From an uncultured Alphaproteobacteria bacterium (GTDB lineage: Bacteria; Pseudomonadota; Alphaproteobacteria; RF32; CAG-239), in the NCBI GenBank assembly GCA_934255405.1, contig CAKQNT010000001.1, positions 34,043-98,042 on the forward strand: 64,000 bases of DNA, read 5' to 3'. Positions 1-27,044 of the stretch are shown here, in pieces; position 1 is the first letter of the stretch; each line of letters starts with the position of its first letter. Under the pieces are notes generated by a model. That model made no database searches and was not told the origin of the DNA. It worked only from the letters and a program-made list of their open reading frames with translations. The translations under genes and the position numbers were made by a program.

Positions 1-2982
1 AAAATCGACTTCATCAAAGTGAAAGACCTCGCGCAATGGCGGAAGTTTTTGCACAAATATAGCCTTGGGCGCTTTGATATCTCTCTCTTTGGCAATGCGT
101 CCGACAAAATAACCCTCGGTTTCCGCCGCTGTATCGGCAGTCAAAAGTTTGGCAAAAATGTTAATGCCGCTGATTGTGGATAATCCGGGAGATTTAATTG
201 AAACAGACATAGCCTTAATATCGCGAATCATATTTTGGTGGATATTAACCACTTCCTGATGGTTGGCAGGATCATACAACTTATCCCCCATAGCGGCAAG
301 CTGCGCTCTGGCGGCATCCACTCTGGCCGCCACTGCCTCATTAAGCTCTTCCAGAGCACTACCGGCAGAGGAGATGAGTTTTTTGCGCACAAAGGAAGGA
401 GTTATTTTTTCACCGAGGCTAACGGTATCTTTAGTATTAAGCATACCATTCTGGCTCAAAATATCCTGCAAGCTCTTTTTAACGGCGGAGGCATATTCAT
501 CCTCCGTGTCGGAAGCCATATTTTGAATATTGGCAAGAACTTTTTTATATTCATCTTGTGCATTGTATGTCGGAGCTGACGAAGCGGCAAAAATAGTGCG
601 CACCTTTTGCCGACGACGGGCAGTGGCAATATTTTTATCCGCTTGGGCAAGTTTTTTCTTCAGCGCTTTGACATTGCTCTTTTGCGTTTTGATGCTTGAA
701 GTCAAAGCGGCAATCTCCGGAGACTCTTTATTTTTGGCGGCGGCGTTATTAAAATTTTTGATTTTATCAGTAGCGCTTGATACCTCACGGGTCGGAGCTG
801 TCCCTCCAACATCTCCGGTTATGCTGTCCGGAAAAGTCTCTTGAGCAGTTACACTTTTGAGCATAGCATCTCCGGCATCATCTTTGGCTTTTTCCCGCAG
901 AGATGAAAGCTTTTGAGTATCTTGTTTAAGTTTATCATTGGCGGCATCAAGCTCTGCCAAAGCTTTTTTGCGCTCGGCATAAAGAGCTCTGATTTTGCCG
1001 GCATAGGTATCATCTATGTGCTTGGCGGCTTCAGTGTCATAGGCTGCCAAAGCTTTATCCTGAGATGAAAGCAGGCTAGTCACCAATGCGGAACGTTTCT
1101 CCCACAAATTGTTACTGATATCGGGGTTCGAACTACTGAGATTTTCCACCGCAACCGCCAAAATATCGTACTGAGAGAAAGAAGTCAGATAAGACTTGAT
1201 ATTGGCGTATTTTTTATCCAGATACTGATTATAAAAATTCTTAACATCAGACCATATCGGAAAACCATTGCCAAACTGCCCCCATTTTTGCGGCTCGCTG
1301 GCCAATGACTTGGAAACCTCGGCGCCGATTTGCCATGAAAGCAAGGCGCTCTTGCGACCTTCGTTGGCCGATTTGGCTTCACTGCTGTCCATGCCCTCTT
1401 CTTCATCATCGCTATCGCGGATAAGTTTTAAGATATCATCAGCCTGTTCATCACTGGTGATAGCGTCAGATTTGACATTGTCGGGATCCACGTCTGAGCT
1501 TCCCATCTTGCTGATATCATCAGCAGAAATCTGCGATGTTTCTGCAGCTTTGGCGGACTGATAATAGTCATATGCCATTTTGGATACACCAGTGCGGTTA
1601 TCATGATCTGTTACATCTGCGCGAGTGCCCCACACCGCAGCGGGATTTTTATAGTGGCGGCCGATGTAATTTTGAGCACACTTGTCAGCAATTTTTAAGG
1701 CATTGAGGGCTTTTTTGTACCGCTCTCTAAGCTCTGCCATACCCTCAGCAAGACCTTTATAACCATCCAGATTATAAATCATATTATGCACTTCAATAGC
1801 TTTTTCTACGGTTTCTGTAATTGGAGCAATTTTTTCCAACTCCGCCATTTTGTCTGCTGCTTCTACATACGGGTGGCTCAGCGGCGAGGCCGGCGGCGTC
1901 ATAAACATAAAAGCATTGTTGGAAATGCCTGAGGTATCAACAATTTTATCTGTACCGGCGGCCACGTCTTCTACCTTAGAAAGCGCCGTCGCGGCATTCA
2001 TATTATCTGCAGCAATTCCCAGCTGGGCAAAAGCCAGAGTTGACGAAGTATGTCTTGAAGAATAGGCATATACCGGCAAAATTTCCATCACTGCCGCATT
2101 AGTTTCTGAAGCAGGAGCGTCATCTTGAGTGGAAGTATCGGCAGTTTGGCTCTTTAGTCCTTTAACATAAGGCGCCGGAGTGCCTTTGTACATGGCTTTG
2201 GCTGATATCAGCTGGGCTCTGAGAGCGGTGATTTTTATGATTTCCTTATACAAATCATTTACGGTCTTGAGAGCCTGACCTTCTATGTACAGGCTTTCGT
2301 TATTGCCATCAGGAGCCGGAGTATCACAGGCCGAAGAATCGCCGCTGATACATTTGCTGGCCGCCTCAACCGAGGCTTTGATGTTGTTATCTAATTCATT
2401 CTGCAGCTGATTTGCCGCGGTATAAATATAGAGCAGAGTATCCTGATAAAACTTCTGCCGATAGTCATTATAAGTCTGTTGTTCTGCCGCGCTGTCGCCG
2501 GGGTATTGCAAAAACAATATTTTGCTCAAGTCATACACACTATCCGCGGAAGTATAATCATATTTTTTGCCTTTATAATAGCAACCATTAAAGTTTTTGC
2601 CCAATCCGATAGAAGCATGAGCGGTGCTAATCGGCGATGCGGCCTCGGCATATTTGGCAAGAGTGCTGCCTAACGTGCCGGTTTGTGCTAGCTTTGTACT
2701 ATCTGCTCCTATCGGCATTGCGCTTAAAGATTCAAGTTCAAGATCGCCGGATATCACCGAGTTGACTGCCGATTTCATATTATTGGCGGTGGCGGTTGCT
2801 GAAGTAATCAAGCTTTTAACATTTTTAGAAAGATCCGAAACCTGACGCAATGTAGAGGGAATATTATCGGCAACATCAGGCAAAGGGTAGGAATCTATAG
2901 ACAACGCCCAAAATGCCCGAGCCGGCAGTGCCGTCAGGATAAAACCACTGAATAATATCGCGCTTATAAGTTTTTTAGACAT
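1..2982 (-). CDS. Large secreted protein, 5' portion only (>990 aa; gene continues past window start). N-terminus MSKKLISAILFSGFILTALPARAFWAL is a signal peptide. No TM segments in the visible part. Last gene visible in this window of the VirB3/VirB4 operon.
   Basis: Manual reverse-complement translation from ATG at 2982..2980 is open to position 1. The ORF track shows only short ORFs here, consistent with one long frame running off the edge. The start codon overlaps the upstream stop (ATGA). Confidence 0.55.
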   Translation of the reverse strand, partial: MSKKLISAILFSGFILTALPARAFWALSIDSYPLPDVADNIPSTLRQVSDLSKNVKSLITSATATANNMKSAVNSVISGDLELESLSAMPIGADSTKLAQTGTLGSTLAKYAEAASPISTAHASIGLGKNFNGCYYKGKKYDYTSADSVYDLSKILFLQYPGDSAAEQQTYNDYRQKFYQDTLLYIYTAANQLQNELDNNIKASVEAASKCISGDSSACDTPAPDGNNESLYIEGQALKTVNDLYKEIIKITALRAQLISAKAMYKGTPAPYVKGLKSQTADTSTQDDAPASETNAAVMEILPVYAYSSRHTSSTLAFAQLGIAADNMNAATALSKVEDVAAGTDKIVDTSGISNNAFMFMTPPASPLSHPYVEAADKMAELEKIAPITETVEKAIEVHNMIYNLDGYKGLAEGMAELRERYKKALNALKIADKCAQNYIGRHYKNPAAVWGTRADVTDHDNRTGVSKMAYDYYQSAKAAETSQISADDISKMGSSDVDPDNVKSDAITSDEQADDILKLIRDSDDEEEGMDSSEAKSANEGRKSALLSWQIGAEVSKSLASEPQKWGQFGNGFPIWSDVKNFYNQYLDKKYANIKSYLTSFSQYDILAVAVENLSSSNPDISNNLWEKRSALVTSLLSSQDKALAAYDTEAAKHIDDTYAGKIRALYAERKKALAELDAANDKLKQDTQKLSSLREKAKDDAGDAMLKSVTAQETFPDSITGDVGGTAPTREVSSATDKIKNFNNAAAKNKESPEIAALTSSIKTQKSNVKALKKKLAQADKNIATARRRQKVRTIFAASSAPTYNAQDEYKKVLANIQNMASDTEDEYASAVKKSLQDILSQNGMLNTKDTVSLGEKITPSFVRKKLISSAGSALEELNEAVAARVDAARAQLAAMGDKLYDPANHQEVVNIHQNMIRDIKAMSVSIKSPGLSTISGINIFAKLLTADTAAETEGYFVGRIAKERDIKAPKAIFVQKLPPLREVFHFDEVDF

Positions 2983-4586
2983 CAGATCATCCCCTCTATT
3001 GAAGTTGCCTGTTCTTGCGCAGAAGACGATGCATTACCATGTGACTTGTTGGTTACAGAGGTAACAATATCTTTACCGACAGACACCGTATCCTTAACTG
3101 TTGACACCGTATCTTTGACTGTTGAGGCAGTATCTTTGACTGTTGACACAGTATTTTTGACTGTTGAGGCAGTATCCTTAACCGTTGACACAGTATTTTT
3201 GACTTTATCCGTAGCTGCCGCTGCCGCGTTTTGGGCTTTTGCGGCAACGCTTAAGCCTTTTTCTTTAAGTTCTTCTGCTTTGTTTTTGGCATTACTGACG
3301 GCGGTTTGGGTTTTGTTAATTGCTGAAGCCGCGCTAGTTTTTGCATTTTTGGCAGTTTCTTTGAGCTTGCGAATTTTATAATCTGCTCCGATATTATCTT
3401 GGTCTGTATAATTACATAGGTTAAAACCGCCGGAAGTTCCGCTGGAATCCAAACCATGCAAAGATGCCATTTCTTGAGCTGTTTGCATCTTCAAATCTGC
3501 CAATATAACTTTGGCGTATTTTTGCAACATATTCATCTGTTCTATCAAAACTTGAGCATTAATTCCGGCGCCTTCGGATTCACCGGTCATAGTATCTGCC
3601 AAATCTTCTTTAGACGTGGCGGAATCAATATTGCTTTGGCGCTCTGACAACATATCGGCGCGGACAGACAAGGCCTCGGCAGAAGAATTGCTCAATGCCT
3701 TTTTGCGTTCTCTTTTCCTTTCTTTGGCCTGCTTGATACTGGCTTTGCCTTTGGTAAACAACTTATCTTCTAAAGAATCCTTAAGTTCGCCAAAGTTTGC
3801 TTCTTTTCCACCGGCGGATTTAACCAGCGATGATTTAGAAGCGGTTTCGGCCAATTTTTTAGTGAGTTCGGCAATCTGTTTAGTTTTTTCAACAACTTTA
3901 TCTTTGAACTCATTATCTATTTCTTTATATTGCGCCTCCAATTTATTTTGTTGGTCGGTTTGTTCCTGTTTAATTCGTTTAAGATCATCAACCATCGACT
4001 GAATCTCGCTGCTTGGAACCTTGGCTTCGGCATTTTGAATTTTTGGCAGGTCTGCCGTTGCCGCATTTGACACTAATTTTCCATTTTCATCAACATCCAA
4101 TCCATAAGACTTGGCGGCCACAGTCAGATTATTGCGGACAGCATTTGCTTTAGCTGTAGTTTGCTCTTTTAGCAAATCAACTTCATTAGCCAGCTCCTGT
4201 TGTTTGGAAAGTTTATTCTCCTGCAATTTCTTGAGCGCTTTGCTTTCTTCGACAATTTTTTTAGATATTCTGGCGGCCTCAAGTTCCGGGCTGTCTTTTA
4301 TTTTGCCATATTCTTCCTGCCCTTTTTCATAGACTTTTTTAGCAAAGGTCAGACCTTGTTTGGTATATTTAATTCCGTCGCCGACAAACTGTCCAAACTG
4401 CGAATCCTGAATATTCTGCATCACCTCTTGAGCTTCGCCGACTTTGCCTTGCACCCAGCTCACAAACTTTGACGGAGTTTTGCCATAGTCAATTTTTGTA
4501 AACTGCGCCTGCGCTGCTGGTATAAACGCCGCGCTGCTACAGACAAACGCTATTCCCATAATAAATGCCGCGGTATACTGTTTCAT
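2982..4586 (-). CDS. Secreted coiled-coil protein (534 aa) with C-terminal 7-aa tandem repeats (STVKDTA/V).
   Basis: Signal peptide MKQYTAAFIMGIAFVCSSAAFIPAAQA. K/E-rich heptad-like sequence. 21-bp DNA tandem repeats at about 3075-3210. Start overlaps upstream stop (ATGA). Confidence 0.55.
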   Translation of the reverse strand: MKQYTAAFIMGIAFVCSSAAFIPAAQAQFTKIDYGKTPSKFVSWVQGKVGEAQEVMQNIQDSQFGQFVGDGIKYTKQGLTFAKKVYEKGQEEYGKIKDSPELEAARISKKIVEESKALKKLQENKLSKQQELANEVDLLKEQTTAKANAVRNNLTVAAKSYGLDVDENGKLVSNAATADLPKIQNAEAKVPSSEIQSMVDDLKRIKQEQTDQQNKLEAQYKEIDNEFKDKVVEKTKQIAELTKKLAETASKSSLVKSAGGKEANFGELKDSLEDKLFTKGKASIKQAKERKRERKKALSNSSAEALSVRADMLSERQSNIDSATSKEDLADTMTGESEGAGINAQVLIEQMNMLQKYAKVILADLKMQTAQEMASLHGLDSSGTSGGFNLCNYTDQDNIGADYKIRKLKETAKNAKTSAASAINKTQTAVSNAKNKAEELKEKGLSVAAKAQNAAAAATDKVKNTVSTVKDTASTVKNTVSTVKDTASTVKDTVSTVKDTVSVGKDIVTSVTNKSHGNASSSAQEQATSIEGMI

Positions 4587-5083
4587 TATTTTTCCTCCGC
4601 TTCGCTATTATCTGAGATATCCAGCCCCGCCAAAATTTGCAACCCCTCCAGATTGGCTATTGCCGCCTCAAGTTCCATCAGTTGTTTAACATTTTCGGCA
4701 ATTTCTTTGGCTGGTGCTTTAACCTTATCTTGCAGCACATGATTTTTATCTGTTGCGCCCAGAAGTCCGCCGGCTAAGCCACTGATTTTGCCGACAGCAC
4801 TATTATTGCCGGACGCTGCGGCTGACGATGCAGCAGAGATAATAAAAGATTCCGCATACAGTCTGGCGGCATATTCATTGATGGTGTCGTCCAATTTTTG
4901 TCGCAAGTCTTGCGCATTTTTTGAACTGGTGCGTGGCGCAGTATTTTCTTTGATAATAATATCAATATTGCCGCTCACGTCCTGCGGGTTTTCTATATAT
5001 GTCGGCACATCAAACGCTTGCGCGGCAGACAACGGCAGCAAACTCAATACAGCAACTAACAATGAGTAAAACATCTTATTCAT
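4586..5083 (-). CDS. Small secreted protein (165 aa).
   Basis: Signal peptide MNKMFYSLLVAVLSLLPLSAAQA. Translationally coupled to flanking genes. Confidence 0.45.
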   Translation of the reverse strand: MNKMFYSLLVAVLSLLPLSAAQAFDVPTYIENPQDVSGNIDIIIKENTAPRTSSKNAQDLRQKLDDTINEYAARLYAESFIISAASSAAASGNNSAVGKISGLAGGLLGATDKNHVLQDKVKAPAKEIAENVKQLMELEAAIANLEGLQILAGLDISDNSEAEEK

Positions 5084-6158
5084 CTTTTATCTCCTTTGCC
5101 ACCGTAGAATCTTTTTCAAAAGCGCGGCGACGAACTACTGGCGCTTGCTTTTGGCCAATATCCAGCAATTGTGTCTTTTGCGCATTAGAATTTGTGTTCT
5201 TTAGCTTAGCAACGCCGATTGAATCTGCCTGCTTAAGCTGCTCGGTTAATCCGACTTGAGTATGAATCTGCTGGGTTTGCTCAGTTTCCGGCAATGGTTC
5301 TTGAGCCAGAGCAGTAACATTATCGGCAGTAACATCTGTTTGCAAATCGGCAGACAAAACTTCTTGAGGCAGAGATATATCCGTTGTGGCCGGCGCAACT
5401 GTGGTCAACTCCTGTATGGTGCTGACAGTCTGCTCCTGTGCGGTGCTATCAGTTTGCTCTTGCGTTTGCAACGGAGTCATTTCCGGCGTGTCGGTTATCG
5501 GAGTTTGCTCCGTTGTTTTAGAGGTTGTTCCGGTAACTTTATCGTGAATGTTGCTAATTTTGCCGGTCGATGTAGAAATTTTTTCCGCTGCCAGTCCTTT
5601 TACATCTTTAACTCCGTCTTTAACTTCGGCATATTGATTTTTGGCATCATCTAACTTGCCTTTAGCATCATCTAACTTGCCTTTAGCGCTGTCAACTTTG
5701 TTTTCCAGTTGTTCTGCCTTGGCTTGAGCCTCTTCTATCTTTTTTTTGACGGCTTCAACTTTGGCCTGAGCCTTTTCATAGCGTTGTTTTAACTTGTCTG
5801 CACGTTGTTTGACTTCAGCAGCACGCTTGGCAAGAGCTTCTTTTTTTTCTTTAGCTTTAGCTGCCGCAGCTTGCATTTTTTCATATTTGGCCTGAACCTT
5901 TTCATAGCGCTGTTTTGCGGAAGCGGCTTTATCCTTAGCTTTTTTTAGTTTATTAAAATCTCCTAACGCCCCTATTTTTTTTTGCATGTATTCATTGGTA
6001 AGATTATCAATTTTCTTAATTTCTTTATTTCCTGCTTGGGTAACATTGTTGAGACCATCAAGAACATTAACAACCCAATCAGTAGGCGCATAACAGGGCC
6101 GCCCCATCAAAACAAGGAGCAAAACCAGCATAGCTACAAATGTCTTTTTTTGCATCAT
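5076..6158 (-). CDS. Secreted coiled-coil protein (360 aa), K/A/E-rich, with internal sequence duplications.
   Basis: N-terminal signal peptide. Repeats KQRYEKAQAK and DAKGKLD x2 (21-bp direct DNA repeat 5646-5687). ATGA overlap with upstream gene. Confidence 0.5.
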   Translation of the reverse strand: MMQKKTFVAMLVLLLVLMGRPCYAPTDWVVNVLDGLNNVTQAGNKEIKKIDNLTNEYMQKKIGALGDFNKLKKAKDKAASAKQRYEKVQAKYEKMQAAAAKAKEKKEALAKRAAEVKQRADKLKQRYEKAQAKVEAVKKKIEEAQAKAEQLENKVDSAKGKLDDAKGKLDDAKNQYAEVKDGVKDVKGLAAEKISTSTGKISNIHDKVTGTTSKTTEQTPITDTPEMTPLQTQEQTDSTAQEQTVSTIQELTTVAPATTDISLPQEVLSADLQTDVTADNVTALAQEPLPETEQTQQIHTQVGLTEQLKQADSIGVAKLKNTNSNAQKTQLLDIGQKQAPVVRRRAFEKDSTVAKEIKDE

Positions 6159-6733
6159 TGCTCGGCCTCCCTTTGTTCGGCATTGCGGAAGGCGGCGTCT
6201 GTTTCAAAGAAATTTTTATATGCGTCAATGCCCATATTGGTGGTATAAACGGCGATTATTTTATTAAGATTTTCTGCGCTGCGAGAATATATTTTGGCAT
6301 TTTTGGTTTGATCTTTGCGCAGATTTTCACCATCTGCAGAAATAGCTCCGCCGGCGGCGGCGCTACCGGATTGAATACCGCTATCATCGCCCAGTCTTTT
6401 GTCAAGGGTTTCTTCATAATCACCGGCATCTGTCTTATATTTTAATGCTATATTTAGAGCATTTTTATTAACTTGATGCATGGTTTGTTTGGCAAGCCTA
6501 TCAATAGAATCGGTATCTGCTGCAATTTTGTTCAAACATTTGTCTATCTTGTCTTGATTAGCGGCGTCGGCAGAAGATATTCCACAGCGCATGGCCAAGG
6601 TCTTGGGCAAGAGCATATCGCCATCAGCCGTAGTGCCATCATCAAGATTAAATCCTGCTGCGCATAGCGGAATGGCCGCCAACATTGCTGCTGGCAGAAA
6701 AATTATCCAACTATGCAGGCGGAGCTTATTCAT
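6155..6733 (-). CDS. Secreted protein (192 aa) whose C-terminal domain is paralogous to the C-terminus of the 593-aa VirB5-like protein (shared motif LAMRCGISSADA...DKCL).
   Basis: Start chosen at MNKLRLHSWIIFLPAAMLAAIPLCAAG (signal peptide), preceded by GAGGAGG 6 nt upstream. The ORF-track start at 6769 was rejected. Confidence 0.5.
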   Translation of the reverse strand: MNKLRLHSWIIFLPAAMLAAIPLCAAGFNLDDGTTADGDMLLPKTLAMRCGISSADAANQDKIDKCLNKIAADTDSIDRLAKQTMHQVNKNALNIALKYKTDAGDYEETLDKRLGDDSGIQSGSAAAGGAISADGENLRKDQTKNAKIYSRSAENLNKIIAVYTTNMGIDAYKNFFETDAAFRNAEQREAEQ

Positions 6734-6734
6734 C

Positions 6735-8516
6735 TTAATCCTCCTCAGGTACGTACAAACCTTGACCATAATTGATAAGAGCTCTGGTTGCCAATTTTGA
6801 GCTTTGGATTTTAAGCAGATTGTTCATTTGCATATCTATTGCCTGATTTAACTGGACGATATTGGCATAAGTGTCTCGCGCATTATCTTCCGGCGCATAT
6901 TCTATCGGCTCAACAAATTTTTCAATAAAGCTATCGGCGTCTTGTCTGGCCTTAAAAGCCTCGGCAATTGTTGCGGCAACTGATTGAGCCACCGCCATAT
7001 TGTAGACTTTTGGCGCATCACTGCCGGAATACGCCTGAGATCCAACACGCTCTTTATTAATACGAAGCAGGCAGTCGTCAACAGCGTTTTCTTTGGTCGC
7101 ATCGGCAGAAGACAATCCGCAATACATAGCCAAAGCCCGCGGGATTAAGACGTTACCATTAAAATCTGTACCTCCATCAGGAAGAGTGAGCTTGGCAAAA
7201 GCCAAAGTCTCGGTAGTATGCAACGCCGAGGTTTTAAACGCTTTGCGGCGGAATTTCTGCTGAGGAGCAACCACAGTTGGATTTTTGGACGGAAGGGCTC
7301 TGATATTTTTGGCTGCCGGTTTTGTGGTGGTCTGTGGGGTTTCAAGCTTAATCGATTTCGGTGCAGATACTATCGGCTGCGTTGTTGATAGTTCTCCCTC
7401 TATAGTCTGAGCACCACCGGAAGCGACAACCGGCGCGGCGTTGCTTGTATCCGCCGGCAGAGTGGCATTTGCTGTAGAAGCGGCGGCATTACTTGTACCT
7501 TCTGCACCAGTTGCATTTTCAGATGCGGTTAGCGGAACAGTGCTTCTGCTGTCAACCGCAGGCAATGTAGCAACCGGATTAGGCGCTGCGACGGGATTGG
7601 GTGCGGCTGCGACAGGCGAAGCAACAACGGAAGTAGAAACCGTTTCAGTTGCGCCGGAAGATATTGCAGAGCCAACAGATGTATCTGTGCCGGCGGCCGG
7701 AACATTAGCCTCTGTAGTTGGCGCGGTATCAGCGGCCGAAACATTGGCCTCTGCAGTTGGCGCGGTATCAGCAGCCGGAACATTGGCCTCTGTAGTTGGC
7801 GTTGTGACATCAGCTGCAGTTTCAAACGGTTTGCGACCCGAAACCGGCACCGCGGGTTCTATAGTCGTAGCACCTGCAACATCTTCAGCCTTGGCAATTT
7901 CATCTTGGTCGGCGGTCGGTTCGGCAGCAGTCTCGGAAGCGTTGTCATCGGTTTGAGAATCGTCTTTTTTATCTTTTAAACCGGCCTTGTCCGCTGCTTT
8001 GTCAACTTTATCTTTGACACCATCAATAGTGCTGCTTGCCTTGTCTTTGATGGCACCGGCAGCCTCTTTGGCGGTATTAACGGTATCTTTGGCTGCTTGC
8101 ACACCATCCTTAGCCTCTTGTATGCCGTCCTCCATTTCTTTTTTGAACTCTTTGGCTTTAGCGATGTTTTCATCCAGCTCTGCTTTGTAGGCTTCGTATT
8201 CTTTTTTGTATTTTTCAACTTTATCTTTATATTTTTTGGCTTTAGCGACAGCTTCTTCTATCTTTTGCTTTTTTTTGAGCACATATTCTGATACGGTTTT
8301 CTGGGCTCCGCCAATAGCTGCAGCTCCTGTTTGAACTGTAATCATAATAGATACTACCGTTGCATTTTCTCTGACTTTGGTGCCAAAAGACTTTATTTCC
8401 TGAATCGTACTAGATGTATCAATCACCGGCACAGCAACGGCTTTAGGGCTAGAAGCAAGCACAATCAGCCAGGCAAGAAAAACACTTGTAAGCATGGTGT
8501 TGATATATTTTTTCAT
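6735..8516 (-). CDS. VirB5/TrbJ-like protein with long extension (593 aa). Signal peptide, then mature N-terminus VPVIDTSS, then a coiled coil. A T/A/P-rich 13-aa repeat region follows, then a conserved C-terminal domain.
   Basis: Positioned directly after virB4, where virB5/trbJ sits in P-type operons. Mature N-terminus resembles the TrbJ/VirB5 family start (inference from memory, not searched). 39-bp tandem repeats 7705-7815. Confidence 0.45.
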   Translation of the reverse strand: MKKYINTMLTSVFLAWLIVLASSPKAVAVPVIDTSSTIQEIKSFGTKVRENATVVSIMITVQTGAAAIGGAQKTVSEYVLKKKQKIEEAVAKAKKYKDKVEKYKKEYEAYKAELDENIAKAKEFKKEMEDGIQEAKDGVQAAKDTVNTAKEAAGAIKDKASSTIDGVKDKVDKAADKAGLKDKKDDSQTDDNASETAAEPTADQDEIAKAEDVAGATTIEPAVPVSGRKPFETAADVTTPTTEANVPAADTAPTAEANVSAADTAPTTEANVPAAGTDTSVGSAISSGATETVSTSVVASPVAAAPNPVAAPNPVATLPAVDSRSTVPLTASENATGAEGTSNAAASTANATLPADTSNAAPVVASGGAQTIEGELSTTQPIVSAPKSIKLETPQTTTKPAAKNIRALPSKNPTVVAPQQKFRRKAFKTSALHTTETLAFAKLTLPDGGTDFNGNVLIPRALAMYCGLSSADATKENAVDDCLLRINKERVGSQAYSGSDAPKVYNMAVAQSVAATIAEAFKARQDADSFIEKFVEPIEYAPEDNARDTYANIVQLNQAIDMQMNNLLKIQSSKLATRALINYGQGLYVPEED

Positions 8517-8594
8517 CTCGGCCTCCTGTCAGCTGCCATATATATTTATTATAGCATGTTTGCCGCCGCAAATAAACGAATTTGCGCGTTTTCG

Positions 8595-16884: not shown

Positions 16885-18456
16885 ATGCCGAAAACAGGTT
16901 TAAAAACTTTTGTTTACAGCTTTTCCGTATCTCTGTTTGCGATTTTTGCCGCTAACGGAGTATATTGGCATGAACACAAACGCCCCTCTCAAGAGCCTAA
17001 AATATCAGATAAAAACATTATGTTGTTTCTTAAATCAGAGCAGGCAAACCCCTCTAAAACTGCCGCTCCGGTAAAGAAAATTGCGCTAAATGTTTTGCCG
17101 GATCTTAAACCGGCACCCGATGATGATATAATCATGGCTGATATCGGGCTGGAAGAATCAGAACTACTGGAAATTCCGCTGGAAATTGAATTGCCACCAG
17201 CTAAGCCGGTGCGCAAAGCTCCGCAACCACCAATGATGTTGGCCGAAAACAAAGTTTCTGAGCCGCTTAAAATTGCAGAGCACCCCAAGTCCAAGGTTGA
17301 GGCTGTGGTGATACCACTGCAGGCTCCGGAGATTGCCGACATTAGCCAACCTGTCGCCGTCAAAGCGCCAGAAACCACAATCGAGCCAAAATCAGCTGCT
17401 CCCACATCGCAACCATTGCTGATGGCCGCAGCCGACGAGCCGATACCGTTGTTGCCGATTGAAAAAAGCTCCGACGAACTGGCGCAAAGCGTTACAAAAG
17501 TCAGAATCGGCTCAGTTGATGACTTGAATCAGGTGGCTTTGGCCGATAAGAGCATTCCAGTTCACAGTATGATAAAAGACAAGCCGGAGGAAAGCACGGC
17601 AGAAAGTGCAAAACCGCAGGCCAAGTGGCAAAGCATGGCTGATAAGACCGCGGCAGAATCCCCGTGGGTGGTAGCAAAGGCCGATGGCGCGCTCAAAAAC
17701 GGCAGGCTGGCAGATGAGGCTTATTATCAAAAAGAAAACGCTGAAATTCAAAGCGCCTTAAATCCGCAGCAACAGAGCGGCAATGAAGTTAAAATTGCTT
17801 CGGAAACAGTTAAAAATCTGCTTATTCCTATTCCGGAAGATATTTTGAATGATGAGAACTTAACTCCTCAACTTTCTTATTCGCCCCAAAACAAGCCTGA
17901 ACCTGAGGAAAAACAGCTGACGGAAGTTAAGCCGGCAGAGCTAAAACTTGACAGCGAGGAAAGTCGAAAAAACAAACTGCTTTCTTCGTTGAACTCGATA
18001 TTTTCCTCCTCTCCAAAGCCCAAAGAGACCAAGTCGGCGGCTGAAGCCCCCAATTTATTGTCGGAAATTCGCAAAAAGTTCCAAAAGCCAAGCGCCGTCG
18101 GAAAGATTATGCCAACCGAAATGCGCTTATCATTCCAGCCCAACCGCGCCGAAATATCCGGACAAACGCTACGCTGGATTCAGGCTTTTGCCGCACGAGC
18201 GGCCGACAACCAGAATATGACCATTGAAATCCGCATTGATGGCACCGCCGCAATGGATTTGCAGCAAAAGAGACTTAACCTGCTACACAACATTTTAACC
18301 GATAAAGGAGTTGAATACAGCAAAATAAACACGGTATTTACTCAAAGAGAGCCCAACTCTTTTATCATCAAAACAATTACTCACAACCCCATAGCCCAAA
18401 GAAGGAGCAATGAAAATATAAACAGAGCCGCAGACGGGTATTATCAGCAATGGTAA
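16885..18456 (+). CDS. Membrane-anchored proline-rich protein with degenerate OmpA/MotB-like C-terminal domain. First gene of type IVb pilus operon.
   Basis: N-terminal TM segment. C-terminal QQKRLNLLHNILTDKGVEYSKI resembles the OmpA_C motif N-x2-LS-x2-RA-x2-V-x3-L-x3-GV. Start set at MPKTGL (SD GAGGGG upstream). Confidence 0.45.
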   Translation: MPKTGLKTFVYSFSVSLFAIFAANGVYWHEHKRPSQEPKISDKNIMLFLKSEQANPSKTAAPVKKIALNVLPDLKPAPDDDIIMADIGLEESELLEIPLEIELPPAKPVRKAPQPPMMLAENKVSEPLKIAEHPKSKVEAVVIPLQAPEIADISQPVAVKAPETTIEPKSAAPTSQPLLMAAADEPIPLLPIEKSSDELAQSVTKVRIGSVDDLNQVALADKSIPVHSMIKDKPEESTAESAKPQAKWQSMADKTAAESPWVVAKADGALKNGRLADEAYYQKENAEIQSALNPQQQSGNEVKIASETVKNLLIPIPEDILNDENLTPQLSYSPQNKPEPEEKQLTEVKPAELKLDSEESRKNKLLSSLNSIFSSSPKPKETKSAAEAPNLLSEIRKKFQKPSAVGKIMPTEMRLSFQPNRAEISGQTLRWIQAFAARAADNQNMTIEIRIDGTAAMDLQQKRLNLLHNILTDKGVEYSKINTVFTQREPNSFIIKTITHNPIAQRRSNENINRAADGYYQQW

Positions 18457-18542
18457 TAAGTATAGCGCGGCGCTTGATTATTTAATTTTCAGTATGTATG
18501 ATAGGAAAAACAATGACAAAATCTAATCCGAGGATTGCAGAA

Positions 18543-19199
18543 ATGAACCAGAAAACATGGAAAAGCACATCTCTGATAGCGGCACTTTTGGTAGCCGGAT
18601 GCAGCACTCACGCAACAAGCAGCCCTTATGACGGCAATTCTCCTATACCTCAAGATATGGTATTAGAGCAGCCGGCTCCGGCGACAAATGTGACCACAGC
18701 CTCCGGCAAGGAGCTGATTAGCTATCGAGAAACCGCCGCGGACTACCGCGAATATGGCGAGCGTATGCCTACGGATCAGGATATTGTCAACTCCGGAGCC
18801 GGAAGCAATATGTCAGCCTCTATTCCGCCAACCATTGATGAGGAAGTTGCGGATTATGAAAACGAGGTAAATGCCGCCATTAATGAGGGCAGCAGCGATG
18901 ACAGCTCGGCGCAGTCTTCCGGCGAGGATCCGGTTGAAGACTGGCTGGCTGAGGAAGGCAGCACGCTTAAAGGGTTGTTGACAGACTGGAGCGAGCGCGC
19001 CGGCTGGAGATTGATTTGGAACAGCAACCGCAACTACACACTGGCTGCCGGCGCAATGTTCCGCGGCAGATTTGCCGATGTAAGCTCGGCTTTAATCAGA
19101 ACATTTGCCAGAGCCAGACCGGCTCCGGTTGCCACTTTTTATAAAGGAAACAGAGTCTTAGTTGTTGAGACCATGGAGGATGAGAATGCGTATGACTAA
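18543..19199 (+). CDS. PilL-like lipoprotein (TcpQ-like C-terminal domain) of type IVb pilus systems.
   Basis: Lipoprotein signal MNQKTWKSTSLIAALLVAGC. Conserved C-terminal LTDWSERAGWRLIWNS...TFYKGNRVLVV. Precedes the secretin gene as in R64/PAPI-1 pilL-pilN. Confidence 0.5.
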   Translation: MNQKTWKSTSLIAALLVAGCSTHATSSPYDGNSPIPQDMVLEQPAPATNVTTASGKELISYRETAADYREYGERMPTDQDIVNSGAGSNMSASIPPTIDEEVADYENEVNAAINEGSSDDSSAQSSGEDPVEDWLAEEGSTLKGLLTDWSERAGWRLIWNSNRNYTLAAGAMFRGRFADVSSALIRTFARARPAPVATFYKGNRVLVVETMEDENAYD

Positions 19200-20787
19200 T
19201 TGGAAAAAAATCGGACTTGGAATGCTTGTTGCGGCGTTCGCAGCCTCCTGCTCGATTTCCACAAATATGGATGCAACAATTGAGCGTGAGGTAGAAACTG
19301 CCACCCGCATGAAAGAAGAGGCCAAAGCGCCGACTGTTGTTGCCAATCAGGATTTGATTAAGGTAAAAGACGAGATTTGGCTTGGTGATTCAAGTGAAAT
19401 CGAATATGAAGGCGCCCCGATACCGGCTTATTTGGAAGGCAAGAACGGCATCACCTTGGTGAGCAACCGCCCGATTACCTTGTTTGAAATCGGCGATATG
19501 ATTAACAAAACCACCTCGCTGGGCGTGCGCTATGCTCCCCAGCTGGAAGCAGATGTAAAATCTAAAGGAGCTGCCAACAAACCTACTGTTGACAGCGTAA
19601 ACAGCGATTGGGCAGAACCGGATAAAATGCTGGTTTCTTATCAGGGTCCTTTGAGCGGATTGCTGAATGAAGTGTCTTCTCGTTTTGGAATCTGGTGGAA
19701 GTATGAGAACAAAGAGATTCACTTCTACAAGTTCGTTACCAGAACCTTTGTTGTATATAGCCTGCCAAGTAAACCGAATTTGTCGGTTAACGTCGGCGGC
19801 AGCCAGAGCGGAGGCGGCGGAAGTTCCTCCATCAGTATGAGCAGCTCGATTGAGGTTGAGATGTGGGGCAACTTTGAAAAAAGTATCTCTTCAATGATAA
19901 GCGATGGAGCAAAACTCACGATGTCGCCGGCTGACGGAACCATCACGCTGACCGCTACTCCGAACGATATTAAGAAAGTTGCAAAATACATTAACGAGCA
20001 AAATGTTCGTTTGTCTCGTCAGGTTGCCATCAGCGTAAAGATTTTGCAGGTTTCGATTACAGATACAGACGACTACGGACTTGATCTGAAAGCAACTTTT
20101 GGCGACGGCGTTACCAGTATCGGCGTCACAGGCTCTACCAGCGTAAGCTCTGCGGCCAGCGCCGGCAATACCATCACTTGGGGTATTCTGAAAGACAAAT
20201 GGACGGCCGACGCGGCGGTAAAAGCGCTTTCTCAGCGCAACAACACCAGTTTGGTTACCAGCGGCACGGTTACAACTTTGAACAACAAACCGGCACCAAT
20301 TCAGGTTACACAAAAGCAGAACTACATTGCAGAAATGACCAAGACCAACAGTGGAACCGACGGCACAAACTATGATATTTCGGTTACGACCGAAGAAGTT
20401 GAGACCGGATTCACACTTGATGTTTTGCCACGAATTTTGGAGCATGGTCGTCTGCTGGTTATGTTCAACATGACATTGTCTGACCTGTTGTCACTGGATA
20501 AAGTTGAGTTCGGCGCCTCCAGCGAGAACCAATATATTCAGAATCCGAAGATTGAATCTAGAGCATTTACCCAAGAAGTGGCTATGACCTCCGGAGAATC
20601 TTTAATTTTGACAGGTTATGAGCGCGTAAACAGCTCAACCACCAAGGAAGGCACCGGCTCAGCCGAAAACTCTTTGCTTGGCGGCTCAGCTAAAGCTCAA
20701 AAAGAACGCAGTGTTTTGGTTATTATCCTGACACCGATTGTATTGGAATCTCCGCTGTCACCGGAAGCCAGAATGTCAATGAATTAG
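19186..20787 (+). CDS. Secretin (PilN/BfpB-like lipoprotein secretin of type IVb pili).
   Basis: Lipoprotein-like signal GLGMLVAAFAASC. C-terminal secretin domain (LVTSGTVTTLNNKPAPIQV...VLVIILTPIV). Confidence 0.7.
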   Translation: MRMTNWKKIGLGMLVAAFAASCSISTNMDATIEREVETATRMKEEAKAPTVVANQDLIKVKDEIWLGDSSEIEYEGAPIPAYLEGKNGITLVSNRPITLFEIGDMINKTTSLGVRYAPQLEADVKSKGAANKPTVDSVNSDWAEPDKMLVSYQGPLSGLLNEVSSRFGIWWKYENKEIHFYKFVTRTFVVYSLPSKPNLSVNVGGSQSGGGGSSSISMSSSIEVEMWGNFEKSISSMISDGAKLTMSPADGTITLTATPNDIKKVAKYINEQNVRLSRQVAISVKILQVSITDTDDYGLDLKATFGDGVTSIGVTGSTSVSSAASAGNTITWGILKDKWTADAAVKALSQRNNTSLVTSGTVTTLNNKPAPIQVTQKQNYIAEMTKTNSGTDGTNYDISVTTEEVETGFTLDVLPRILEHGRLLVMFNMTLSDLLSLDKVEFGASSENQYIQNPKIESRAFTQEVAMTSGESLILTGYERVNSSTTKEGTGSAENSLLGGSAKAQKERSVLVIILTPIVLESPLSPEARMSMN

Positions 20788-20797
20788 GAGAACCACA

Positions 20798-22075
20798 GTG
20801 CTTGAAGAAGCCAAACTGTTAGATGATGATATAGACAACGGCTCAGCCAAAAAATCTTGGGGTTCATCCATTACCATTGATGGAGTGAGCTATGCCACAA
20901 GCCTGTTTTGGCAGCCGTTGCAAAATGCCAGCGACCCTTTTCAAGAAGTTGAAGAGGCGTCAGCCGGCGTTTTGGAAGGAGCCGACCTGTTTTGTATTAA
21001 GGGAGGCAAGGCTCCGCAGTTTGGTATCTGCGTTTCTCATGAGGGATATAAAAGCGGCGAAACGGTAGCCGCGGTTGCGTTGGCGACTTCGCTCTCCGAC
21101 ATCGGCTCGTTTATTGCGGTATTTAAGACCGCTGAGGGCTGGTGGTATACCTGTATTCGTAACGACATTATCTTGTCCGACGGCGATATGTTGTTCTTAA
21201 GCGAGGAAGAAGCCAAAGAACAGTTTTTATCTATGTTGGCTGTGCCGGATTGGGGCAAAAAAATTGCGCCCAAAGAATGGGAAATCGAAGACACGGAACA
21301 ACTCGATTTGGCCGAAGTTTTGGCTAGAGGCGCAAAATCAAAGCTGCAAAAAATTAAGGCTTTGCGCGGAGGCAAACTGTTTGCCGTGATTGCGGTTTCG
21401 GCTGTGGTCGGTTTGTGGTTGCTCTCCAGCCTAGTGGACACCCTGTTTTTGACACCGACCGTACGTCCGGTTGTTGTGCCAGTTAAACCGAAGGTAGTGC
21501 CCAAAGTAGAGCAAGTGGTAGAAGTTAAGCCGTGGGAAAAAGTGCCTAACCCCCAGCAGGTTATGAAAAACTGTTATCAGGGAATTGTGGCTCTGGATAA
21601 GATTTTGCCTCCAGGCTGGGCTATTGGAGCAATCAGTTGTAACAACGGCAGTGCCGCCACCTCATGGGTTCGTAATGTCGGGCGCGTGGCATGGGCAAAA
21701 AAAGCTTTGGATGATTCCGGACTAAAATTTTCGGGCTATAGTTTTTCTTCCAACGGCTCAAGTTTGTCGGCAACTTTGGCTCTGGACAAGGCGGAAGAGC
21801 AATTGAGCCCGCCGCAAAAACGCGCGATAGAGCTCCGTGACGAATTGAACGATACATTTCAGAGTATCGGCGTGCCTATTGCGTTGTCTACCGAAACAAC
21901 CAAATCGTCAACCGGCACGATTTATCAGATGATAAAATTTTCACTCAATTCCGAGTACAATCCTTTGACATGGCTGGATTTGTTAACAAAATATTCAGGA
22001 CTTGAGATTAAACTTATAACATATTCTCCAAACGACAAGATTTGGCATTACGAGGGGACAATCTATGTTTTGTAA
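20798..22075 (+). CDS. Bitopic inner-membrane pilus assembly protein (PilO2/BfpC-like by position). GTG start.
   Basis: Single central TM (LFAVIAVSAVVGLWLLSSLV). Position between secretin and PilP-like gene. AGGAG RBS 7 nt before GTG. Confidence 0.4.
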   Translation: MLEEAKLLDDDIDNGSAKKSWGSSITIDGVSYATSLFWQPLQNASDPFQEVEEASAGVLEGADLFCIKGGKAPQFGICVSHEGYKSGETVAAVALATSLSDIGSFIAVFKTAEGWWYTCIRNDIILSDGDMLFLSEEEAKEQFLSMLAVPDWGKKIAPKEWEIEDTEQLDLAEVLARGAKSKLQKIKALRGGKLFAVIAVSAVVGLWLLSSLVDTLFLTPTVRPVVVPVKPKVVPKVEQVVEVKPWEKVPNPQQVMKNCYQGIVALDKILPPGWAIGAISCNNGSAATSWVRNVGRVAWAKKALDDSGLKFSGYSFSSNGSSLSATLALDKAEEQLSPPQKRAIELRDELNDTFQSIGVPIALSTETTKSSTGTIYQMIKFSLNSEYNPLTWLDLLTKYSGLEIKLITYSPNDKIWHYEGTIYVL

Positions 22076-23384
22076 AATAAGAAATATTTTAAGCGTTTCC
22101 GCTTTGGCTTTGATGGTAACAGCAGGCAATAACAACCTGTATGCGCAAGGTGTTGTTACCCTCTCGGAAGATGCCATGTTTGATGATAATGACAGCGCGC
22201 CGTCTGCAAGCGTGCCGGATAATGCACCACTGTTTGGCTCTGACAATGCAGCTCCGACAGCGGCACCAAAAGTTGAGCCGAAGGCTGAACCGGCAGTTGA
22301 ACCTGTCGCCGCAGCCGAGGTTCCGTCACCGATTATGCCGGCGTCTATGCTCAACCAACCGGGGGCTGGCGTGGGAATTATAGGCACTAATGACAACGAA
22401 GAAATTGGTGATGAAGTCTTTTCTAAGATGTCTAATTTGGAAAAGCAAACGGCGTTGTTGAATCTTGAACTGCGCAGAGAGAAAGTTCAAAACGAAATTG
22501 AGGCTATCAAGAATCAGCGCAAACAGGCAATAATCCAAGAACAAGAAAAGGCCGAAGAGCAAAAGCGCAAAAAGATTGAATGGGAAAAAGAGCAAGAGCA
22601 AAAAGTTCTGCAAGAACAGCAGAAGTTGCGTGAGCTGGATATTAAATTTGAAACCGTGCGTCAGGAAAGACTGCTGAACTCTTACAAGAACGAGATGCTT
22701 ACGGCTAATCAGGAATGGATTGCTCATGAAGGCGGTCTCTATCAGCAGATTGAGGATCTGAAAAAAGAAAAACAGGCGTTGTTGGAAGATACGCAGAATA
22801 AGCTGAAAAACATTAAAGCCAGCTTTGCTAATGCTGCTACTCAGGCCGACGAAACCGTTAATGCTTATAAAAAAGAAATCGGAACCCTGAAAGAGCAGAT
22901 TAACACTCTAAACTCCAGAATTGAAGCACAAGAAAGAGAAATGGAAAGACGCAATCCGTTTGCCGATGGCGGAGTTGAGGACGGCGGTGCGGTTACGGCA
23001 TCACAAGCTGCTGATGCTATTGTTCCGGAGTTGAAACTGCAGAATATGTATGCGGTTATGGAAATTCGCGGACAAAATGGAGAGTTGATTGCCAAACTGA
23101 TTAATCAGGACGGCACACCTTTCTATGTTAAAAAAGGCACAGCACTGCAAAGCGGACATATCATCGATGACATCACCTCGACTTATGTTCGGGCAGAAAA
23201 GAACGGTATAAAAGATTATTTATACTTTGCGGCCGGCGGAATTTTGCCTCTGGAACAGCCGAAAACAACAATTACTCCTGATTTGCCGGCGGCAGAGACT
23301 GTCAAAAACACGGCTCCGGCCAAACAGGGTTTTGTAGCCAGCAACGGAATTCCGGGATTGGGACAATCAATGATGGCCAGATAA
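22065..23384 (+). CDS. Periplasmic PilP-like protein: signal peptide, coiled-coil region, C-terminal beta-rich domain.
   Basis: Signal peptide. C-terminal LKLQNMYAVMEIRGQNGELIAKLINQDGTPFYVKKGTALQSGHIIDDI resembles PilP/GspC HR-type secretin-interacting domains (inference). Confidence 0.4.
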   Translation: MFCKIRNILSVSALALMVTAGNNNLYAQGVVTLSEDAMFDDNDSAPSASVPDNAPLFGSDNAAPTAAPKVEPKAEPAVEPVAAAEVPSPIMPASMLNQPGAGVGIIGTNDNEEIGDEVFSKMSNLEKQTALLNLELRREKVQNEIEAIKNQRKQAIIQEQEKAEEQKRKKIEWEKEQEQKVLQEQQKLRELDIKFETVRQERLLNSYKNEMLTANQEWIAHEGGLYQQIEDLKKEKQALLEDTQNKLKNIKASFANAATQADETVNAYKKEIGTLKEQINTLNSRIEAQEREMERRNPFADGGVEDGGAVTASQAADAIVPELKLQNMYAVMEIRGQNGELIAKLINQDGTPFYVKKGTALQSGHIIDDITSTYVRAEKNGIKDYLYFAAGGILPLEQPKTTITPDLPAAETVKNTAPAKQGFVASNGIPGLGQSMMAR

Positions 23385-23387
23385 ACC

Positions 23388-25073: not shown

Positions 25074-25080
25074 GAGTAAG

Positions 25081-26217
25081 ATGATGGCAGAAGATAAGAT
25101 TAAAAGAAAACCCAAATCTTTGCAAAATGCGATGATAAAACTTAATGTCATCGAGGAATATTATGCCAAAATGATTATCATCTTCTCTAACAAGGTGCGA
25201 CTGAAAATGTATCGCAAAATTGCCTCGTTAATGAAGAACCGTTTCTCCCTGATGGACGCGTTGGATATGTTGCATGACGGCGCCAGCAACGGAGGCAAAA
25301 ACCCCGGCGAGCCGCTGGCAATTGCTATTGCCGCATGGGGCAAGGCCTTGAACAATGGTAAAACATTTTCTGATGCGCTTAAGGGCTGGGCGCCGGCACG
25401 AGAAAGGCTTATGCTTTCGGTTGGCGATGTGTCCGATTTGGAGAGCGCTCTTCTGAACCTGATTAAGGTTACCGAGGGTTCTACCAAGATGATACGTCCG
25501 ATTATCGGGGCGATTGCCTACCCGAGCTTTTTGATGATGATGTCTGTATTGATTATTTATGCCATCGGCGTTTATATGGTGCCACCAATGATTGATGCCG
25601 CGCCTAATGTAGTTTGGCATGGTATGGCGCGAGATTTGGTAAATTTATCCGACTGGATTAAAGACAATTGGCTGATAGCCTTTTTGTCCTTGCCGGTGAT
25701 AATGGCAGTAATATATTTTACAATCGGTATCTGGACTGGCAAAATCCGCGCCTATTTTGACTGCATTCCGCCATGGTCTTTGTATAAGGTATTTACCGGC
25801 ATCAGCTGGTTGCTGGCTTTGTCGGCGTTGGTAAAAGGCGGCACGCCGGTTTCTACGGCTATGCGCGCGTTGCGGAGAGATGCCAGCAGATATTTGCGCG
25901 AACGCATTGATAAGACACTGGTCTTTATTAATAACGGTGACAACCTCGGGCAAGCACTGGCCAAAACCGGACTTAATTTTCCGGATAAAGAAATTATTGG
26001 CGACCTTAAAATTTATTCTGAGTTGGATAACTTTGAAGAGGCTTTGGATAATCTGGCTAATGATTGGTTGGAAGAATCCGTATATATGATTGAAGAGAAA
26101 GCCGGAATCTTAAACATGGTTGCCCTATTGGCTATCGGCGGTGTTATTGCTTGGGCGGTTATGGGCACATTTGAAATGCAAGACCAAATTACCAGCGGCA
26201 TGGGAGGCGGAGCTTAA
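25081..26217 (+). CDS. GspF/PilC-family inner-membrane platform protein (PilR-like).
   Basis: 378 aa, three TM segments with GspF-like spacing. Follows the ATPase gene. Confidence 0.7.
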   Translation: MMAEDKIKRKPKSLQNAMIKLNVIEEYYAKMIIIFSNKVRLKMYRKIASLMKNRFSLMDALDMLHDGASNGGKNPGEPLAIAIAAWGKALNNGKTFSDALKGWAPARERLMLSVGDVSDLESALLNLIKVTEGSTKMIRPIIGAIAYPSFLMMMSVLIIYAIGVYMVPPMIDAAPNVVWHGMARDLVNLSDWIKDNWLIAFLSLPVIMAVIYFTIGIWTGKIRAYFDCIPPWSLYKVFTGISWLLALSALVKGGTPVSTAMRALRRDASRYLRERIDKTLVFINNGDNLGQALAKTGLNFPDKEIIGDLKIYSELDNFEEALDNLANDWLEESVYMIEEKAGILNMVALLAIGGVIAWAVMGTFEMQDQITSGMGGGA

Positions 26218-26218
26218 G

Positions 26219-26785: not shown

Positions 26786-26922
26786 GAATCGACGCAATCA
26801 ATTTTTGCCTTGAGATAAAGATGGATTGCTTCTCACGGCTAATCGCCGTTCGCGCAATGACATTAGAGAAGATGGCTATTGCAGCTCACTACGTTCGGGG
26901 CTCGGGATAGTGTACTTTTAAA

Positions 26923-26990: not shown

Positions 26991-27044
26991 CTACATTGGA
27001 AAAATAATATATATTGCGTTATTGCACAATGTTTATACACTTAT

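Follow-up and report, generated by a model that had tools for sequence, protein, structure and literature searches.

A two-cysteine domain shared by a VirB5-position protein and its downstream neighbour in a type IV secretion locus of uncultured Alphaproteobacteria

VirB5 is the least understood of the essential parts in a type IV secretion system (T4SS); it nucleates the pilus on VirB6, is located at the pilus tip and may adhere to or pierce targets (PMC12857230, PMC12624023). The locus described here raises the question of what a protein can be that holds the gene position of VirB5 and carries at its far end a domain which the next gene encodes a second time. The locus lies in a 64,000-nucleotide stretch of DNA from an uncultured alphaproteobacterium (GenBank assembly GCA_934255405.1, contig CAKQNT010000001.1, positions 34,043 to 98,042 of the forward strand), hereafter the window, and the two genes concerned, X and Y, encode secreted proteins of 593 and 192 residues, respectively. 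The reading that we favour, with a probability of roughly 0.55, is that X serves as VirB5 equivalent, whether as a minor pilin or as a subunit of stalk or tip, in a divergent chromosomal T4SS of the VirB type found in uncultured gut Alphaproteobacteria, and that Y is a partner paralogue of its C-terminal domain.

Gene X (6735..8516; coordinates are those of the window, and X, Y and their operon read on the minus strand) is in the list of open reading frames (ORFs) and is matched by 20 homologues from a first database search, all of which have the same layout of N-terminus, spacer and C-terminal domain. Residues 1-28 (8433..8516), hydrophobic over residues 4-23, form a predicted signal peptide that would be cut after ...PKAVA and before VPVID, and in the family alignment a site of the A-x-A type stands directly ahead of the conserved motif; both the 593-residue frame and the start VPVIDTSS after signal cleavage had been named in an initial annotation of this stretch, and both are present. 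The mature N-terminus, residues 29-80 (8277..8432), consists of the VPVID motif, a helix and an AAIG motif, is VirB5-like by hhalign, and has D33 and G69 as its most conserved positions. There follows, over residues 81-175 (7992..8276), a K/E-rich predicted coiled coil, which AlphaFold draws as part of one continuous helix from residue 35 to 175, in keeping with the coiled coil of the initial annotation and at low confidence (predicted local distance difference test, pLDDT, 53-70), and which in Pfam and NCBIfam gives only matches of the coiled-coil noise type. The best matches of the X-family N-terminal profile among Protein Data Bank (PDB) sequences are designed alpha-barrels of five to seven helices (CC-Type2, CC-Pent2, CC-Hex3), over X residues 35-61 (about 8334-8414); at an expectation value (E) of 0.011 or weaker none of these is convincing, and they provide no more than hints of a heptad pattern that might suit a higher-order helical barrel. 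Residues 176-422 (7251..7991) are a hypervariable spacer rich in A, T, P and S (A 21%, T 15%, P 10%), predicted to be disordered (pLDDT <50); AlphaFold places no secondary structure between residues 176 and 445 and makes the C-terminal part helical. Within the spacer is the 13-residue T/A/P repeat of the initial annotation, borne out by Tandem Repeats Finder as a 39-nucleotide tandem repeat at 7693..7801 (period 39, 2.8 copies, 91% matches) which encodes TTEANVPAADTAP / TAEANVSAADTAP / TTEANVPAAGT. The protein ends in the two-cysteine helical domain, residues 423-593 (6738..7250), paralogous to Y, in which the TGC codons of Cys466 (7119..7121) and Cys482 (7071..7073) specify residues that are invariant in the family alignments A2 and A4, the first of them being found in 97% of 193 copies of the domain.

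The position of X is that of VirB5 in the strict sense, directly after the VirB3-position and VirB4 genes of a conserved T4SS operon. Indeed, an X homologue lies directly 3' of VirB4 in every related locus, the X-Y pair stands behind VirB4 in all 14 related genomes, and the two distant relatives with enough flanking DNA, P0128 and P0092, also come directly behind VirB4 in an operon of the same kind (the contigs of P0167 and P0091 are too short upstream for VirB4). In terms of sequence, X was compared with six plasmid proteins encoded directly after VirB4 (in Lichenihabitans, by the second gene after it). The Agrobacterium VirB5 and the Lichenihabitans, Erythrobacter and Microvirga proteins have a ΦPxxD start with, by eye, an (A/T)IG-like motif some 36 residues later, and the proteins at the IncN TraC and IncX4 Pilx5 positions have the same motif in a looser form. 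When the N-termini of 84 members of the X family were set against these six by hhalign, the probability was 95.9% with the signal peptides and 78.5% (E 1.7e-5) without them, the latter alignment pairing mature residues 1-41 of either side in register. Moreover, among 76 distant family members, eight match PF13605 (DUF4141), a 53-position N-terminal model, over residues ~10-58, at E 1.4e-4 or weaker and with at most 21.6 bits against a cutoff of 30; seven match the TrbJ model PRK13879 (best E 1.2e-4) and five the VirB5 model TIGR02791 (best E 3.9e-4), all below threshold, as is the match of P0154 to PF07996 (20.5 bits, cutoff 24.7), which runs over residues 29-142, that is, for 114 residues from the mature N-terminus. 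Those of the sub-threshold matches that were located are mostly N-terminal. In our reading, X at its N-terminus probably descends from, or at least works like, VirB5, while no profile places it in the formal family; in other words, of the VirB5/TrbJ likeness proposed in the initial annotation, the gene position and the ΦPxxD N-terminus hold and the profile match does not.

Several observations weigh against assigning X to VirB5. X matches none of the VirB5, TrbJ and DUF4141 profiles, with Pfam searched to E<=10 and NCBIfam to E<=0.1, and its 20 close homologues match none in Pfam. TraC and TrwJ were not found when the profiles A2, A4 and A6 were searched against PDB sequences, and the matches that were returned (Tic22, CdvA, XerH, designed coiled coils) were set aside, none being meaningful. 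The comparison set is thin, with only the Agrobacterium protein of the six annotated as VirB5, and the N-terminal hhalign match to it spans only 41-49 columns. The C-terminal domain of X, and Y likewise, scores <1% by hhalign against the same set, so that this part of X shows no detectable similarity to VirB5. The full-length AlphaFold model of X is poor (pLDDT 44, predicted template modelling score, pTM, 0.24) and was not used. Furthermore, the operon has no obvious VirB6: the protein of some 1,300 residues at that position, encoded after gene 5, has 0 transmembrane (TM) segments and was rejected as a VirB6 candidate.

As regards the second gene of the pair, the ORF list gives Y as 6155-6769, with 204 residues. 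The true start is almost certainly the ATG at 6733, which gives 192 residues (6155..6733), because this codon is one nucleotide past the TAA of X, is preceded by GAGGAGGA, and yields the length of the homologues P0021 and P0022. The X stop codon occupies 6735-6737, one spacer base follows, and the Y ATG is at 6731-6733, with the Shine-Dalgarno-like GAGGAGGA (6739..6746) lying within the last codons of X (EED), read ACCTGAGGAGGATTAAGATG; such an arrangement suggests that translation of the two genes is coupled. Residues 1 to ~27 of Y (6653..6733; hydrophobic residues 6-30) form a predicted signal peptide, and the homologues of Y have AQA, AFA or AYA directly before the D-D-G-T motif, where cleavage would occur. 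The remainder, residues 28-192 (6158..6652), is the two-cysteine domain, which aligns by hhalign with the X family over Y 23-190 and in which Cys50 (codon 6584-6586) and Cys66 (codon 6536-6538) are both invariant in alignment A3. The exact 192-residue sequence is found on 23 public contigs, several of them labelled gut metagenome, and an ORF of ~180-230 residues is conserved directly behind the X homologue in 14 of 14 related loci. Two other identities were considered for Y and rejected, the first being an entry-exclusion lipoprotein, for which a conserved lipobox is missing, most homologues having signal-peptidase I sites of the AQA or AYA type, and the second the 'real' VirB5, which was dropped on the hhalign score of <1% noted above and the lack of a ΦPxxD start.

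The similarity of X and Y is paralogy over the entire domain of ~165 residues, far beyond what chance would give in the sequence comparisons made. BLASTP aligns the two motifs quoted in the initial annotation, with 50% identity over 40 residues (pairwise E 5e-11), and finds nothing beyond. When alignment A2, of the X family, is set against A3, of the 15 downstream proteins at the Y position, hhalign gives a probability of 98.3% (E 1.1e-14), and its 155 columns pair X 435-593 with Y 23-190, spanning the D-G-T loop, the cysteine pair and a C-terminal hydrophobic helix. A hidden Markov model (HMM) of the X C-terminal domain matches, in each of the 15 loci compared (the 14 related ones and the window), the ORF that comes directly 3' of the X homologue, with E of about 7e-8 to 1e-14 (the ORF set being small), and the domain HMM scores X at E 1.2e-90 and Y at E 1.2e-11. 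The downstream secreted protein with a paralogous domain that the initial annotation described is borne out accordingly, and the pairwise alignment and HMM search that it proposed show the similarity to cover the whole domain and not merely a short motif; the second shared block that it placed near the C-termini is not seen by BLASTP and is recovered by hhalign, the alignment of which reaches the C-termini.

The pair is part of a larger family. Early profile searches returned two Y-like proteins (P0021, P0022), then 15 with profile A3, and an exhaustive search with A4, the joint domain alignment, found 234 representative clusters at E<=1e-3, 103 of them at E<=1e-10. Of 180 proteins for which the architecture was classified, 93 are of X type, with the domain C-terminal, 71 are of Y type (~180-210 residues, signal peptide plus domain), 11 have two tandem copies, three have the domain at the N-terminus with a tail, and two have some other arrangement. 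Most X-type proteins have a signal peptide and a mature start of the form [IVLFW]P[VTS]xD, and the N-terminal and C-terminal parts of X occur together throughout the family. The two-copy proteins look like genuine X-Y fusions and not artefacts of read-through, because the ten junctions inspected are linkers of 6-35 residues which contain no signal peptide.

Within the domain the two cysteines are the most conserved columns, at 97%, followed by Gly449 at 82%. When the copies are aligned to the domain HMM, 187 of 193 carry both cysteines, three complete copies (P0067, P0078 and the first copy of P0149) are without both, and the other three odd cases are fragments, so that zero complete copies have a single cysteine. 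The usual spacing is C-x15-C, and a near-invariant D-x-G-T...G loop stands ahead of the pair; these features, together with a helical domain of ~165 residues and a C-terminal hydrophobic helix, define the family, and X and Y both have them. A structural disulfide would be expected, since both proteins have Sec-type signals and the cysteines are kept or lost together, a pattern that agrees with the two-cysteine module of the initial annotation and from which we infer that the pair is oxidised in the exported proteins. The structure prediction that the same annotation called for (AlphaFold model me6fcea40cef7 of X 431-593, pLDDT 72.6, pTM 0.60) is all-helical, with two short helices and then three long ones, and puts one cysteine in a short helix (fragment residues 30-36) and the other in the first long helix (48-62). 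A fold search with this model returned only generic helical matches, and TraC, TrwJ and CagL were not among the matches listed. The shared domain has no sequence match in Pfam, NCBIfam or PDB, scans of 21 X and 15 Y family members against Pfam at E<=10 gave coiled-coil noise only, and tblastn of the C-terminal domain against plasmids gave no match at E<=1. On these sequence comparisons we regard the domain as a family not described before and linked to this T4SS lineage; the taxonomic range of its 234 clusters is known as far as the 14 named metagenome-assembled genomes.

One clade of the family (L006, L008, L009, L011, L013 and L014, with P0017-P0020 and P0023-P0031) has a second pair of cysteines both in X (DDC...TCMYC) and in Y (VICS...HEC), at different positions in the two. 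By its sequence pattern this looks as if the two paralogues had each gained, in parallel, one further putative disulfide.

A partnership of X and Y is suggested by four things: the paralogy of the whole domain, the adjacency of the genes in 15 of 15 loci, the gap of one nucleotide with the Shine-Dalgarno sequence inside X, and the natural fusions. On the favoured reading, both proteins would be exported by Sec, after which a periplasmic disulfide between the paired cysteines would staple the first long helix of the domain to a short helix near its N-terminal end. X would then join the stalk or pilus tip of the T4SS through its VirB5-type mature N-terminus and long helix, much as the VirB5 pentamer does in R388, and its coiled coil and variable low-complexity spacer would keep the C-terminal domain distant from the point of assembly. 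There the domain would pair with Y, made in step with X by translational coupling, to give a conserved subassembly of the tip or stalk.

The foremost alternative is that the two-cysteine domain is itself an adhesin or host-interaction module, as the initial annotation had suggested. X would then display it on a long stalk at the pilus tip, and Y would be another copy of it, either soluble or associated with the tip, for which the ligand on host cells, on mucus or on other bacteria would be identical or related. Both proteins are exported, the domain is at the distal end of a long helix and spacer, adhesins are known among proteins of the VirB5 type and in CagL and CagI (PMC12857230, PMC3164655), the near-invariant D-x-G-T...G loop before the cysteines could bind a ligand, and the bacteria come from gut samples. 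Where the variation falls argues otherwise. Between X and most of its homologues, identity is 48-56% in the N-terminal motif region, 43-59% in the coiled coil, 14-26% in the spacer, which has large indels and a length of 109-257 residues, and 61-66% in the C-terminal domain (42-44% for the clade farthest removed); P0001 and P0002, the two closest homologues, are much more alike throughout, with spacers at 90% and 56%, and rank the regions in the same way. Among strains with identical Y (L028-L037), X is of 593 or 585 residues, that of L028 being identical to X of the window, and differs at ~70 positions. Some 50 of these differences are in the spacer, the loss of one 13-residue unit and an insertion of 12 residues included, about 20 are in the signal peptide and N-terminal part, with a deletion of seven residues (one heptad) from the coiled coil, and only one or two are in the C-terminal domain; the missing repeat unit is absent from the 585-residue variants and from P0001. 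In the same strains gene 3 of the secreted series, which follows Y, encodes 360, 366, 374 or 381 residues, its polymorphism being in the repeat and coiled-coil regions. At the extremes, a relative of 301 residues (L012) is nearly spacerless, and in a distant X-type protein of 787 residues (P0143) the spacer is interrupted by a GAF domain (PF13492, E 4e-10, residues 495-608). From these patterns the spacer appears to be expendable and fast-changing and the two-cysteine domain constrained. The label of a '400-residue extension' in the initial annotation is misleading, since the N- and C-terminal parts are always together and only the spacer can be dispensed with.

Between species, no part of X is better conserved than the putative binding module. 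Between strains this module is near-invariant, with the spacer taking up almost all the variation, and its strongest conservation is structural, in the cysteine pair and in helix-packing Ala and Leu residues. As judged from the sequences, such a pattern would suit a structural or partner-binding module better than a receptor surface under pressure from a host. Y does diverge faster than the C-terminal domain of X in the same genomes (~42-46% against ~63%), a point in favour of a binding role; no similarity to a known adhesin or lectin family or fold emerged from the searches made. We therefore regard the domain's being primarily an adhesin as doubtful, while recognising that such a role is compatible with the VirB5-equivalent reading, in that the X-Y module could serve assembly and at the same time bind a ligand that is itself conserved.

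A second alternative, which we consider unlikely, is that X and Y are not homologues of VirB5, but have an accessory role in the periplasm or at the surface, or reach the T4SS as its Sec-dependent substrates. The ΦPxxD start would in that case have arisen by convergence, or would be a common signal for sorting or assembly, and the genuine VirB5 would be missing or encoded at another place. The missing profile match of X speaks for this reading; several T4SSs are without VirB5, and the Ptl system of pertussis toxin has Sec-exported cargo (PMC12857230). The operon has, in addition, four further secreted proteins that are mostly coiled coil, and the mature N-terminus of one of them, gene 5 (QFTKID...), is in register with that of X (hhalign 57.7%, E 1e-4). 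Against this stand the strict gene position across the related loci and the two distant relatives, the 114 residues over which the best relative matches PF07996, and the in-register N-terminal match to VirB5-position proteins, which X alone of the operon's secreted proteins shows: as a control, the other four score <=1.1% against the same six proteins. Genes 3-6 were also considered as VirB5-like paralogues and rejected, gene 3 matching X through coiled coil only, gene 5 being weak, and genes 4 and 6 giving no match. Finally, that X and Y resemble each other by chance or low complexity, or that Y is not a real gene, as the 40 residues aligned by BLASTP alone might suggest, is for practical purposes refuted by the 155-column hhalign alignment (98.3%, E 1e-14), the HMM matches in 15 of 15 loci, the classification of 180 proteins, of which 93 were of X type, 71 of Y type and 11 fused, and the exact Y on 23 contigs.

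Turning to the setting of the pair, the minus strand from 2982 to 16577 is, by the ORF list of the window, a single long operon, which in order of transcription comprises three VirB2-like genes, a 96-residue gene, VirB4, X, Y and four more genes for secreted proteins. The same order is kept across the related loci, where it continues with two VirB8 genes and VirB9; in the window this part would be beyond the window start. VirB4, an ATPase encoded directly upstream of X (8595..11024), matches TIGR00929 at E 1.2e-112 and PF03135 at E 1.8e-13. At the VirB3 position (11014..11304), overlapping the start of VirB4, is the 96-residue membrane protein, which has one TM-like segment, no family match in Pfam or NCBIfam, and a counterpart in most related loci. 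The three VirB2-like genes encode 112 (16239-16577), 211 (15367-16002) and, in a giant form, 1257 residues (11537-15310), each with a VirB2-like TM hairpin and the latter two with a weak match to the VirB2/TrbC pilins. In the giant protein the hairpin is at residues 482-536 (PF04956, E 3e-4, sub-threshold), flanked by long arms of coiled coil and low complexity, and its orthologues in the related loci listed are of 1463-1721 residues; a 113-residue orthologue of the smallest, in L002, exceeds the PF04956 cutoff.

Behind Y, genes 3-5 (2982-6158; ORF list) encode proteins of 360 (coiled coil), 165 and 534 residues with signal peptides, and gene 6 (1-2982) a signal-peptide protein of >993 residues that leaves through the window start; these four genes are in perfect synteny in 13 loci. 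The 534-residue protein contains a 21-nucleotide tandem repeat of 5.9 copies (3082-3204, minus strand), giving TVSTVKD heptads near its C-terminus. In the related loci L001-L014, two adjacent VirB8 paralogues lie downstream of gene 6 in the same operon, and in L007 they are followed by a VirB9/CagX protein with a C-terminal SPOR domain.

The T4SS is adjoined by a type IVb pilus cluster (16852-28219, mostly plus strand) that contains a TcpQ-like protein, a secretin, a T2SSE ATPase, T2SSF and two PilS/bundlin pilins, and this linkage recurs in the locus of the distant relative P0092 (L024/L025). Also within a few kilobases of the pilus and T4SS clusters are a pair of genes for a Ser/Thr protein kinase and a PP2C phosphatase (29943-32205, minus strand) and a lone ATPase of the T2SSE family with 333 residues (33990-34991, minus strand), which may be of the VirB11 or PilT kind. 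Otherwise the window contains housekeeping genes (YidC, ribosomal protein S1, DnaK, DinB), for which reason the T4SS is taken to be chromosomal; the DNA of the X-Y region had no match by DNA similarity when compared with plasmids. The closest genomes are all from uncultured Alphaproteobacteria (two of them titled Proteobacteria only), and several are from gut samples, human Hadza and roe deer among others.

A more specific picture can be drawn, and it is offered as tentative: X and Y would together make up a distal module of two components, not described before, in a separate T4SS lineage of Alphaproteobacteria associated with the gut. The role of VirB5 would here be rebuilt from an oligomerising helix of the VirB5 type, a strain-variable, mucin-like spacer and a conserved, disulfide-stapled domain that forms a heterodimer with its co-translated paralogue. 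If this is true, the module would be a new architecture for the pilus tip or stalk, and possibly the device by which uncultured gut bacteria make contact with the mucus or cells of the host. The locus appears to represent a lineage in which the protein at the VirB5 position keeps only the N-terminal signature and has gained a long stalk, a strain-variable spacer and a conserved domain, duplicated as a separate partner gene. Since the system is chromosomal and syntenic across many genomes of uncultured gut Alphaproteobacteria, it is a candidate means of contact between these bacteria and what surrounds them, and the clear domain boundaries, the cysteine pair and the natural fusions make the domain a defined target for domain curators and structural biologists.

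It remains to place X and Y among known systems. The VirB5/TrbJ/TraC/TrwJ minor pilins (PF07996, TIGR02791, PRK13879; 1R8I, 8RT9), of which VirB5 assembles as a pentamer on VirB6 and at the tip of the pilus (PMC12857230, PMC12624023), are like X in having their gene directly after virB4, a Sec signal, a ΦPxxD mature start, a long helix ending in (A/T)IG at, by eye, a similar spacing, and an all-helical prediction. Unlike these proteins, which have ~220-275 residues, X has 593, and it differs in having ~95 extra residues of coiled coil, a disordered hypervariable spacer of 109-257 residues, a C-terminal domain with a conserved cysteine pair of its own and no detectable VirB5 similarity, and, as its next gene, a stand-alone paralogue of that domain. 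The closest annotated VirB4 found, with 38.6% identity over 94% of its length, is on plasmid pMVF16-3 of Microvirga sp. VF16, where VirB2, VirB3 and VirB4 are followed by a protein of 273 residues that starts QVPVLDS and has a weak match to PF07996 (E 0.17). This protein has neither the spacer nor the two-cysteine domain, and its next gene encodes a membrane protein that is not Y-like; moreover, the Microvirga locus has a relaxase and VirD4 and looks conjugative, whereas that of the window sits amid housekeeping genes.

The best functional analogy for the X-Y pair is with CagH, CagI and CagL of Helicobacter pylori, which are encoded by contiguous genes of a T4SS operon, have C-terminal similarity, are exported, purify together as one subassembly of pilus biogenesis and are required for pili to form (PMC3164655); CagL is listed as the VirB5 counterpart (PMC12624023). 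By this analogy, the likeliest role for X and Y is that of a conserved assembly or partner-binding module in a VirB5-like tip or stalk subassembly. The likeness is one of organisation only, in that what the Cag proteins have in common is a hexapeptide and partial similarity, while X and Y share a full domain of 165 residues and end differently (...VPEED in X, ...REAEQ in Y), without a shared hexapeptide; CagL, which should be in the PDB sequence set, is not among the matches of A2, A4 and A6 there at E<=10. A further comparison is with the Trw system of Bartonella, which has multiple variable copies of TrwJ (VirB5) and TrwL (VirB2) (PMC12857230) and which is likewise a host-associated alphaproteobacterial T4SS with amplified pilus parts, the counterparts here being the three VirB2-like genes and the duplicated tip-type module. 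The Trw copies, however, are full-length tandem duplicates thought to be variable adhesins, whereas in the present locus only the conserved C-terminal domain has been duplicated, and it is the spacer that varies.

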